From: Promethearchaeia archaeon
Lineage (GTDB): Archaea > Asgardarchaeota > Lokiarchaeia > Sigyniarchaeales > SOKP01
NCBI GenBank assembly: GCA_046483985.1
Contig: JAWOCD010000016.1
Coordinates: 1-64,000 of the forward strand
Length of the DNA: 64,000 bases
Direction of reading: 5' to 3'
Of the stretch, positions 7,606 through 26,567 are shown piece by piece; within the stretch, counting starts at the first letter, position 1, and each line of letters starts with the position of its first letter. Under the pieces are notes generated by a model. That model was given only the letters and a program-made list of their open reading frames with translations, was not told the origin of the DNA and did not search any database. Position numbers and translations under genes: made by a program.

Positions 7606-7754
7606 AACTAAATTTTAAAAATTAGTTGCGTCTTCTTTTAATTAAGATTCAATTTTTAATATAATTAAAATGAAATCAAGGAGGTTGTAATAACATACCA
7701 CTTCAAGTCAAATTCAATAAAATATTAGCCTTATGAAACGCTTCTGGCTATCTT

Positions 7755-8609
7755 ATGGGTTTTTCGGTAAAGGAGTTAAAATATAAAACTAAATACTTGA
7801 TATACCTTGCAGAAGAACAACATACTGGCACGTGGTTTAGCTTTAAGATTCGACTTAAAGGCCAAAAATTTCCCATCTTATTCCATAATGTTGAGCCGAC
7901 ACCGATCTTTAGATTAGTGAACAGTAAAAAGGGAACCACAATTAATCGGATTACGTTGGATTTTGATATTAAACGGTACTTACTGAAAAATTACGAATTT
8001 AGTGACGAATTGGATGATTTAAAGGATTCTCTTGGGACTCGCCTCTATATTGATATCTTTAAATATTCGGAATCTCCATACCTCATTGCATATTTCACGC
8101 TAAAAAATATCTCGGATTATGAATTATTGGATTTCTCTATGTACTTTATATTTGACTTCGATATTAATGGTCTTCAAGGATTTGATACAGACGTCTCGGA
8201 CTATGATGAGGATGAGGATATTCTCTATCAATATGACAATACAGGGGTTCATGGAGGATTATCATCGATATCAAAACCAACACACTATGAAACAACCTTA
8301 ACAAATGAATTTAACCTCGATAAAGATCATTTAATTCTTTCCAATTCACTGGTAAAGGAACCCGGGGAAATTTTGTCCGCCTTACAGATTAAATTCCAAG
8401 ACCTCAGTCCTAACCAATCATTTCAAACTGCTATAATTCTCTCGGGAGGATTGAGTAAAGAAGAACTATTTGAAAACATTAAGAAAGGAAAAAATAATGC
8501 TATACGATACGCAAAACAAGTAAATAGGTCTATTAAATCTGAAGAGCGGAACAGCCAAGAGAAGGCGTTCGAAGATTTAAATAAAAAAGAATCAAAAGGA
8601 TGTGATTAA
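7755..8609 (+). CDS. Hypothetical protein
   Basis: 284-aa ORF with no motif I recognise. Confidence 0.7.
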   Translation: MGFSVKELKYKTKYLIYLAEEQHTGTWFSFKIRLKGQKFPILFHNVEPTPIFRLVNSKKGTTINRITLDFDIKRYLLKNYEFSDELDDLKDSLGTRLYIDIFKYSESPYLIAYFTLKNISDYELLDFSMYFIFDFDINGLQGFDTDVSDYDEDEDILYQYDNTGVHGGLSSISKPTHYETTLTNEFNLDKDHLILSNSLVKEPGEILSALQIKFQDLSPNQSFQTAIILSGGLSKEELFENIKKGKNNAIRYAKQVNRSIKSEERNSQEKAFEDLNKKESKGCD

Positions 8610-8676
8610 CACATTATTCCTTCCATGATAATGATTCAAATAAAAAACCAAGTATTTGGGAATATTTGATGAATGC

Positions 8677-8692
8677 CTCGCAAGGGTGAGGA
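8677..8692. terminator. Short hairpin between convergent genes
   Basis: CCTCGC-AAGG-GTGAGG stem-loop between the 7755..8609(+) and 8711..9184(-) stops. Confidence 0.35.
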
Positions 8693-8710
8693 ATAATGCT
8701 TATAAGTTAT

Positions 8711-25025: not shown

Positions 25026-25145
25026 ATGTTGTTTTGTCAAACTTGTGGATATATTCTGGAGCAAAATAAAAAACCCGGCAGATATTACTATTGTCCCCGT
25101 TGTAATAAGGTGCGAATGTTTTTTGGCTCTGCAGAATTAAAATGA
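25026..25145 (+). CDS. 39-aa C4 zinc-ribbon microprotein
   Basis: MLFCQTCGYILEQNKKPGRYYYCPRCNKVRMFFGSAELK; two CxxC pairs; too short for the ORF track. Confidence 0.6.
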   Translation: MLFCQTCGYILEQNKKPGRYYYCPRCNKVRMFFGSAELK

Positions 25146-25269
25146 TAGATCAATGAAATATAAAATTATCCCTTTTCGAATGAAGAGCATATAAAATGAT
25201 AGATATGCTCGGACGACCTTGCACGGGAAAAAGGGGATATAATTAAAATGGTACTGTATTATGTATATT

Positions 25270-25776
25270 ATGAGCACTTCGGATCAAATCTCAGGTGTTC
25301 CAATAGGTTCTCAAGCCCCCGCATTTAACATGGAGGATATCGATGGCAACGCGGTGAAATTAACGGATCTCTTAGAACAATACAACGCTGTACTTATTGA
25401 TTTTTTTAGAGGTGCTTGGTGACACGGTTGAGTAAACCATCTCAAACTTCTCTCGGATAACCTCGAATTATTTCGGCGGCATAATGTCAAACTCCTAAGT
25501 ATTTCCAGTGATTCCGCAAGAAATATGAGCCAGCTAAAACAGAAACATCGGTTTGATATCACCTTTGTTTCAGATCCTGGGACAAAAATTGCTAAAAAGT
25601 ATGAAGTTTCCATGTATGAGCAACTCGGTGAATCAAAGTTGAAGGCATTGCAAGCCTTACCCTCAAAATTTTTGATCAATTCAGACGGTAAAATTAAATG
25701 GAAATATTTAGCCGAATCTAAATTGGACAGACCTTCCATCGACCAAATAGAAGGGGCACTCGAAGAATATCTATAA
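25270..25776 (+). CDS. AhpC/TSA (peroxiredoxin-like) selenoprotein with a UxxU motif
   Basis: Continuous frame MSTSDQISGVPIGSQAPAFNMEDIDGNAVKLTDLL..LIDFFRGAW-TGA-HG-TGA-VNHL..SISSDS..FVSDPG..PSKFLINSDGKIKW; TGA at 25420 and 25429 replace the CxxC cysteines; SECIS-like hairpin downstream; alternative ATG at 25261. Confidence 0.88.
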
Positions 25777-25780
25777 ATAA

Positions 25781-25847
25781 GATCCCACGGAATGAGTCAA
25801 ATATAAAATTTTAGATATTTGAGGACAGCCCTTGCAAGGGCGGGATC
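25781..25847 (+). promoter_or_regulatory. Eukaryote-type SECIS-like element in the 3' UTR
   Basis: GATCCC/GGGATC outer helix; ATGA at 25792; TCAAATAT/ATATTTGA stem with an A-rich loop; GA at 25824; side hairpin GCCCTTGCAAGGGC. Confidence 0.78.
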
Positions 25848-26567
25848 ATTTCATTCAATGATTATATCTTTGGTTCGCTGAGTTTTTTGACAATCCTCAC
25901 GTGTTTCATAGTTGGAGCCATAATTGCTTCAAAGTACATTCAATATAAGCAAAACACCTTATTATTTATAGGACTAGCAATTTGTGGAATATACATCCCA
26001 TGGTGGCCCTCTGGTTTCGCCTTTATTTATGCACTATTAACAAATGGGGCTAAAATTTCCGATCCGACCTATTTTATTATTGGGAATGCGCTCATCCCCC
26101 TATTTGCCTTTCTCTGGGTCTATGGCATCTCACTGCTCTTGAATCTAAAAAGAAAATGGCTTCTACCCGTTATATATTTAGTGATCACGATTGCAATGGA
26201 TATCTACCTATTTTATTATTTAATTACAGATTACACGGCCATTGGAAATGTTAGCGGGTATTTTGATGCGCAATATAATCCCCTTATGAGTCTTTATTTA
26301 ATTTTCATTAATTTATCAGTGGTTGTAACAGGATTATTATTTGCCAGAAGGTCATTAAAAGCCGAAAGTGAAAAGATTCGCTTAAAAGGCAAATTTCTAG
26401 TAGTCGCTTTTCTCTGTTATTTTTTCGGAGCCGTTTTCGATGCTGAGACGACTATATCTCCCATAATCTTAATAATCTCGCGATTTGTTTTAATTAGCGG
26501 TGCGATTTGCTTTTATATTGGATTTTTATTACCGCAGTTTATACTCCGGCTATTTGAATTTGAATAA
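25848..26567 (+). CDS. Multi-pass (about 7 TM) membrane protein; start uncertain (ATT at 25848 or TTG at 25887)
   Basis: Hydrophobic throughout; the frame is open upstream as ISFNDYIFGSLSF, which completes the first TM helix. Confidence 0.7.
   Translation: MSFNDYIFGSLSFLTILTCFIVGAIIASKYIQYKQNTLLFIGLAICGIYIPWWPSGFAFIYALLTNGAKISDPTYFIIGNALIPLFAFLWVYGISLLLNLKRKWLLPVIYLVITIAMDIYLFYYLITDYTAIGNVSGYFDAQYNPLMSLYLIFINLSVVVTGLLFARRSLKAESEKIRLKGKFLVVAFLCYFFGAVFDAETTISPIILIISRFVLISGAICFYIGFLLPQFILRLFEFE

Follow-up and report, generated by a model that had tools for sequence, protein, structure and literature searches.

The peroxiredoxin-like gene prxL lies at 25261..25776 on the forward strand of the window (the whole stretch of DNA analysed here: the first 64,000 nt of contig JAWOCD010000016.1 of a Promethearchaeia archaeon). 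Its product has an AhpC/TSA fold (PF00578, E 7e-26) with the motif W-U-H-G-U and measures 171 aa from ATG 25261, or 168 aa from ATG 25270. By alignment, its two in-frame UGA codons, at 25420..25422 (Sec 1, aligned with the first Cys of CxxC) and 25429..25431 (Sec 2), both on the forward strand, fall exactly on the redox-box cysteines; the reading frame is otherwise intact, and the protein contains no Cys outside that box. Four nucleotides 3' of the prxL TAA stop (25774-25776) begins a 67-nt element (25781-25847, forward strand), whose core is 360-370 nt from the two UGAs. This RNA is very probably the known Asgard signal for reading UGA as selenocysteine. Upstream of prxL, on the same strand, the window holds an uncalled 40-codon zinc-ribbon gene (25026..25148) with a second such element (25167..25239), and a third element (8613..8702) follows a conserved hypothetical gene.

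The genome (4.06 Mb, 97% complete) has the selenoprotein set of Lokiarchaeota and the machinery to match: tRNA-Sec, SepSecS, SelB (a 205-aa part), a SelD gene that itself contains an in-frame TGA, and a PSTK-like gene that scores below its family cut-off. A protein encoded nearby groups with a Promethearchaeota cluster, in keeping with a Lokiarchaeia-type Asgard archaeon. The only two L7Ae-family proteins found are L7Ae and L30e, at ~123 aa each; no SBP2-sized member of the family was found in this 97% complete genome.

Structure and surroundings of the prxL element

The original prediction described an outer helix, an AUGA...GA core, an 8-bp upper stem with an A-rich loop and an extra side hairpin; every segment it quoted is exactly in place, and RNAfold returns the same three-helix fold (-21.1 kcal/mol, z = -2.9, with 1 of 200 shuffles equally good), giving pair probabilities of 0.85-1.0 for all pairs. 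The outer helix P1, placed by sequence and the RNAfold fold, joins a 5' arm at 25781..25786 to a 3' arm at 25842..25847. From the sequence, the bulged strand of a predicted kink-turn (25790..25796) comprises G25790 (position -1b, pairing with C25826), an A-A-U loop and G25794-A25795, so that the AUGA of the core spans 25792-25795. The upper stem P2 (25797..25822, supported by fold and comparison) has 8 bp (25797-25804/25815-25822) and a 10-nt loop (25805-25814) that starts with AAAA, is A-rich on its 5' side and ends with AG. The non-bulged core strand follows at 25823..25826, as read from sequence and alignment, with a G, the G-A at 25824-25825 and the C of position -1n; the side hairpin P3 (25828..25841, from fold and comparison) then forms 5 bp with the loop UGCA in this copy. 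All these parts lie on the forward strand.

The core matches every feature of the Lokiarchaeota SECIS, which bears out the earlier assignment to a eukaryote-like AUGA/GA type. The methanogen-type GAA/A bulge between GC-clamped stems is absent from the predicted fold, no T-run follows this copy on its 3' side, and an Rfam scan, with matches taken up to E = 10, did not bring up any SECIS family. A descriptor combining core, closing pair and side hairpin matched three sites in the 64-kb window (8631, 25180 and 25792), compared with 0-2 matches in each of 12 simulated windows (mean ~0.4).

The element had also been said to fill almost the whole intergenic gap. It does fill 67 nt, but 110 nt separate the prxL TAA from TTG 25887, the earliest standard start codon available to the following gene, though the true start may be closer. 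This downstream gene for a membrane protein (window 25815-26567) has no ATG, GTG or TTG before 25887, yet its homology reaches back to ~25860; if translation began at an ATC or ATT at 25845-25850, the gene would run into the last bases of the outer helix.

Conservation of the two UGA codons and their element

Among 60 distinct prxL homologues tallied, the first UGA position is TGA in all 60, and the second divides into 41 UxxC and 19 UxxU, Cys thus occurring in most. Under a strict pattern the element lies 3' of 51 of these 60 homologues, each of which has at least one TGA, and the distance from first UGA to element is nearly always 364-375 nt. Five of the nine homologues missed by the strict pattern belong to family f2. 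Scans found no AUGA/GA core behind six TGA-containing prxL genes of that family (L017-L022), nor behind L111; since six such genes show no AUGA/GA core, the kink-turn is not universal. One of them, L022, has a similar three-helix layout that lacks the standard core.

In six UxxU orthologues from the home family, the ~400 nt upstream contain no other element, and therefore one downstream element appears to be enough for two UGAs, as the original prediction proposed for this gene. Tandem prxL paralogues occur at L046, L047, L049, L051, L063, L075 and L077, where the second copy is UxxU and each copy has its own three-armed SECIS.

A conserved third helix in Asgard SECIS elements

A genome scan that used the core only placed a P3-type hairpin 3' of several other elements as well. 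A covariance model built from 21 elements found 13 sites in the genome, behind prxL, two vhuU genes, three mvhD genes and several unlisted genes. It also had matches in every one of the 117 genomes belonging to this family; P3 is also present behind selD in the home genome. The structure is thus found behind other selenoprotein genes of this genome (selD, vhuU and mvhD). At three vhuU/mvhD loci of the home genome (L034, L039 and L030) the UGA within the core AUGA is itself the stop codon, so that the coding sequence takes in the 5' arm of P1.

Circularity was avoided by gathering 97 elements through protein homology alone, one of which proved to be a false core call. A hairpin stands directly 3' of the core in 90 of the 97, compared with ~33 expected from shuffled flanks, a count resting on related genomes that are not independent of one another; a further tally (79/92) is biased, many of its loci having been chosen by the P3-containing model, and the 90/97 count is the unbiased one. 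P3 extends to other Lokiarchaeia families and to families f9, f19 and f25 of other Asgard classes. Sequence comparison thus indicates that the side hairpin is a conserved part of Asgard selenocysteine signals and not peculiar to prxL. This corrects the suggestion that it may define a variant architecture: it is the general Asgard form, found behind prxL, vhuU, mvhD, selD and unlisted genes. The short upper stem is not new either, having already been described in Mariotti 2016.

The family consensus for P3 is a stem of 4-5 bp with a 5-nt loop, Y-G-Y-R-A and mostly Y-G-C-R-A, in which the G is present in all and is followed by C or U; the loop register in the prxL copy is displaced by one base relative to this consensus. 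When 32 elements were aligned in a fixed register, the central two P3 pairs formed in 31 and 32 of them. The inner one formed in 24, using four pair types, and the outer two in 22 and 15. Within the home family P3 covaries only modestly, its central pairs being near-invariant there. Compensatory variation was seen in P2, the -1 pair and the P3 inner pair. In one gene family the P3 stem is reversed (CC/GG to GG/CC) with the loop G unchanged.

The remaining parts of the element differ in how strictly they are kept. The -1 pair, between the G two bases before AUGA and the base after GA, forms in 100 of 102 elements (G-C in 94, A-U in 5, C-G in 1) and is G-C in all 32 aligned elements. The next closing pair is kept in 72/102 (39 when shuffled) and the third is at background. 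P2 shows double changes at all 8 of its pairs, with 93.8% of cells paired in the 32-element alignment. P1 is present in 42 of 44 prxL, vhuU and mvhD elements; in the UU family, which has the longest P3, it occurs in 13 of 33, near background. The G-R-A-U-G-A strand opposite G-A-C, with its covarying -1 pair, has the layout of a kink-turn, in which tandem G.A positions come after a 3-nt bulge. The canonical helix of this core amounts to only one to three pairs before opening into P3 and P1, and the alignments suggest that P3 is a more constant support for the kink than P1. Since P3 is kept where P1 is not, it is most likely a working part of the element.

Alternatively, the AUGA/GA hairpin alone could be the SECIS, with P3 and P1 forming a 3'-end protection or termination structure that has no role in recoding. 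Stable 3' hairpins commonly protect mRNA ends, which would suit P3 and P1 as an end structure; T-rich runs follow many of the orthologous elements, and published SECIS models work without P3. Nevertheless, we consider this unlikely. P3 keeps a fixed spacing of 0-3 nt from the core and its loop bases are retained (G in all, then C/U). Furthermore, such hairpins are not enriched behind ordinary genes: they occur in 96 of 1622 ordinary 3' regions (118 when shuffled) versus 11 of 14 SECIS sites. P3 is also present where an element sits inside a probable operon (zinc-ribbon to prxL), and P1 encloses the core and is therefore not a separate terminator.

If the structure serves selenocysteine insertion, it is expected behind TGA-containing genes and not behind their Cys counterparts. 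It is kept behind TGA orthologues, whereas neither the five zinc-ribbon genes with Cys nor the 24 mvhD loci of the Cys type, the two families that these comparisons covered, showed an element.

The upstream element and other UGA-containing genes

The element at 25167-25239, overlooked in the original prediction, lies 550 nt upstream of the prxL element (AUGA at 25180, P2 at 25185-25210, P3 at ~25217-25227). Its AUGA stands 34 nt after a UGA (25143-25145) near the end of the zinc-ribbon gene, which was delimited from sequence and homologues, has two CxxC motifs and ends K-UGA-UAG. Homologues of this gene at 26 of 31 loci, the window copy included, carry K-UGA followed by UAA or UAG, with an element at each; the element is 30-52 nt 3' of the UGA in 25 of these 26. 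The other five of the 31 loci read K-C-stop and have no element, although they may represent just two events because they were drawn from two genera. Together these patterns point to the zinc-ribbon gene as a candidate selenoprotein gene with Sec as the last residue. Caution is needed with this terminal-Sec reading, since UGA codons very near a SECIS have been proposed to act as stops (Mariotti 2016, PMC4989117). One zinc-ribbon homologue (L090) has an additional TGA within its second CxxC.

The presence of elements on both sides of prxL raises the question of whether two of them serve its two UGAs, the copy at 25167-25239 working from upstream in the manner of Selenoprotein P or methanogen fdhA. 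Only 112 nt separate the zinc-ribbon and prxL genes, which may be co-transcribed, and prxL is flanked by two elements here and at three other UxxU loci with a zinc-ribbon gene. However, many UGA copies of the zinc-ribbon gene have no prxL downstream, so the element belongs to the zinc-ribbon gene: it tracks the zinc-ribbon UGA-stop even without prxL and is missing where that codon is Cys. Conversely, UxxC genes have an upstream element when the zinc-ribbon UGA is present, and the six UxxU orthologues do without one. We therefore dropped the upstream element as a 5' UTR SECIS of prxL and regard such a division of labour as very improbable. That the prxL UGAs are plain stops in a pseudogene, and the hairpins chance or some non-SECIS regulatory element, is hardly credible when both TGAs sit on redox cysteines in an otherwise intact frame, orthologues keep TGA or Cys, and the same RNA stands behind known selenoprotein genes across the genome.

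The third three-armed element (8613..8702, forward strand) has its AUGA at 8631, a long apical loop, a U-A closing pair and the P3 loop CGCAA. An element here is conserved behind 25 of 25 examined loci of the ORF at 7755-8609, and an in-frame TGA lies seven codons before the ATG of that ORF in 24 of the 25; an ATA start is found in 22 of 25. In the window, this gene would run from a probable ATA start at 7695, preceded by GGAGG at 7680, to 8609 on the forward strand, reading through TGA 7734, as homologous loci also indicate. It is thus a candidate selenoprotein gene, probably starting at ATA. The idea that the 8631 element is a fossil behind a gene that reverted to Cys was rejected once the N-terminal TGA was found. 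The gene adjoins a roadblock-GTPase gene, was found in 57 of 61 genomes searched, and encodes a predicted beta-sandwich-like fold.

Elsewhere in the genome, three 150-aa paralogues of a UGA-UGA family (L024:4253-4711 on the reverse strand, L035 and L038; contigs C18, C101 and C95) each have a SECIS behind them. Their motifs are D-U-U, G-C-U-U and U-G-U-U, and they share a conserved 35-aa tail. Within the order, 126 of 154 genomes have the family, which is found in another order too. No Pfam or NCBIfam family scored over its cut-off for the zinc-ribbon, ATA-start or UGA-UGA families, and these three conserved UGA-containing families are absent from the 2024 Asgard catalogue (seven families) and from a 2026 table of 119 prokaryotic families.

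A small membrane-anchored protein (L023:3883-4266 on contig C8, also L053 and L071) has an acidic linker ending G-G-U, and a SECIS follows it; two relatives end GCGGR-U and CDLPI-U, and the tail after the UGA is not clearly conserved. A homology search for relatives of the contig C8 protein found almost nothing. Another candidate UGA gene is L037 (contig C107, ~1590-2110), where a SECIS-like element follows an ORF of 85 aa; upstream, this frame stays open if a single TGA is read through (S-A-T-T-U-T-M).

A model for the Asgard SECIS and its implications

Our data suggest that the element is the SECIS of a UxxU PrxL gene and that the hairpin published so far is only part of the Asgard SECIS, a reading that we hold to be likely. 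Comparison of sequences supports an mRNA fold made up of P2, an AUGA/GA core closed by 1-3 pairs, P3 and P1. Following kink-turn rules, G-R-A-U-G-A opposite G-A-C would form a kink-turn. Its short canonical helix would be stacked on either P3 or P1, and the stacked layout would resemble a three-way junction of the k-junction kind. An L7Ae-family protein (L7Ae or L30e) could bind the kink, while the loops of P2 (AAA...G) and P3 (G-Y) may contact the ribosome, SelB or another factor. If decoding follows the eukaryotic model, an element ~365 nt downstream would let SelB-Sec-tRNA decode both UGAs in turn.

More tentatively, the Asgard SECIS may be a three-helix k-junction-like RNA in which the P3 loop serves as a second recognition site, for a stand-in of SBP2 or for SelB, that was lost towards eukaryotes. 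Being built mostly 3' of the core, such an RNA could recode a UGA only ~30 nt away, permitting proteins with terminal Sec such as the zinc-ribbon product.

The element bears on how archaea can use a 3' UTR SECIS in the absence of SBP2, and no archaea are more closely related to eukaryotes than the Asgard group. Should the published hairpin be only half of the element, the whole junction would be required for binding assays, pull-downs and structures. A lokiarchaeal vhuU SECIS with a reported folding energy of -6.9 kcal/mol was inactive in Methanococcus maripaludis (PMC11881835). Folding energies range from -5.7 to -10.6 kcal/mol for the core only and from -10.7 to -15.7 kcal/mol with P3; from these values, the failed test may have used the core only. 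The longer SECIS model is also a sharper search tool, pointing to at least three conserved UGA-containing families in one genome. Including the third helix and closing pair changes the model of the Asgard SECIS and brings to light candidate selenoproteins that had been missed.

Comparison with known selenocysteine signals and k-junctions

Much of what the prxL locus displays is already known: the AUGA/GA core, the UxxU gene and the single SECIS for UxxU. The third helix and the closing pair are the addition. As described in Mariotti et al. 2016 (PMC4989117), the lokiSECIS consists of AUGA, a 9-bp stem, an 11-nt A-rich loop ending in G, and GA. The study of Huang, Xiao and Zhang 2024 (PMC11227280), covering >400 Asgard genomes and seven selenoprotein families, gives the type I eSECIS-like element a stem of 7-15 bp and a loop of 8-20 nt and reports no highly conserved nucleotides around the core. 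The prxL element shares with these forms the AUGA before the stem and GA after it, adenines at the start of the loop and AG at its end, a ~9-bp stem (8 Watson-Crick pairs plus a flanking G.G), a site just after the stop codon and a genome without SBP2; its loop has 10 nt, not the 11 nt of the lokiSECIS. In the available text of both papers, figures aside, there is no mention of the side hairpin, its loop or the covarying closing pair, though part of P3 may already be drawn in the published figures. No paper on a SECIS with a three-way junction came up in literature searches.

The gene itself closely resembles PrxL.1 of Lokiarchaeota, for which Mariotti 2016 (PMC4989117) gives two Sec in the redox box and a single SECIS for UxxU. 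Both have no other Cys and one downstream SECIS, and nothing substantive differs. The W-U-H-G-U motif was not found in the available supplementary text of Huang 2024, which formatting may explain.

Methanogen (euryarchaeal) SECIS elements share the 3' UTR position, and those of the vhuD type also share AUGA and GAC/AAC flanks, according to Mariotti 2016. They differ in that the Asgard element is without the GAA/A bulge and GC clamps, and in the inactivity of the lokiarchaeal core in M. maripaludis (PMC11881835).

With eukaryotic SECIS forms I and II, the element has in common a tandem G.A kink-turn core after AU, unpaired adenines atop the stem and a 3' UTR location, and eukaryotic SelL likewise uses one SECIS for UxxU. 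In contrast to the eukaryotic forms, however, the upper stem is shorter, a multiway junction replaces the long lower helix, and SBP2 is missing. The 34 nt between the zinc-ribbon UGA and its element also fall below the eukaryotic minimum UGA-SECIS distance, quoted as 51-111 nt (PMC6163693).

The predicted fold also resembles the k-junctions (Wang et al. 2014, PMC4005666; Li et al. 2023, PMC10573300), in which a kink-turn core and an additional helix attached to the non-bulged strand make up a three-way junction. P3 of the Asgard element is on that strand too but branches after 1-3 closing pairs, a different topology from the k-junction of TPP riboswitches, where the inserted third helix faces the loop.
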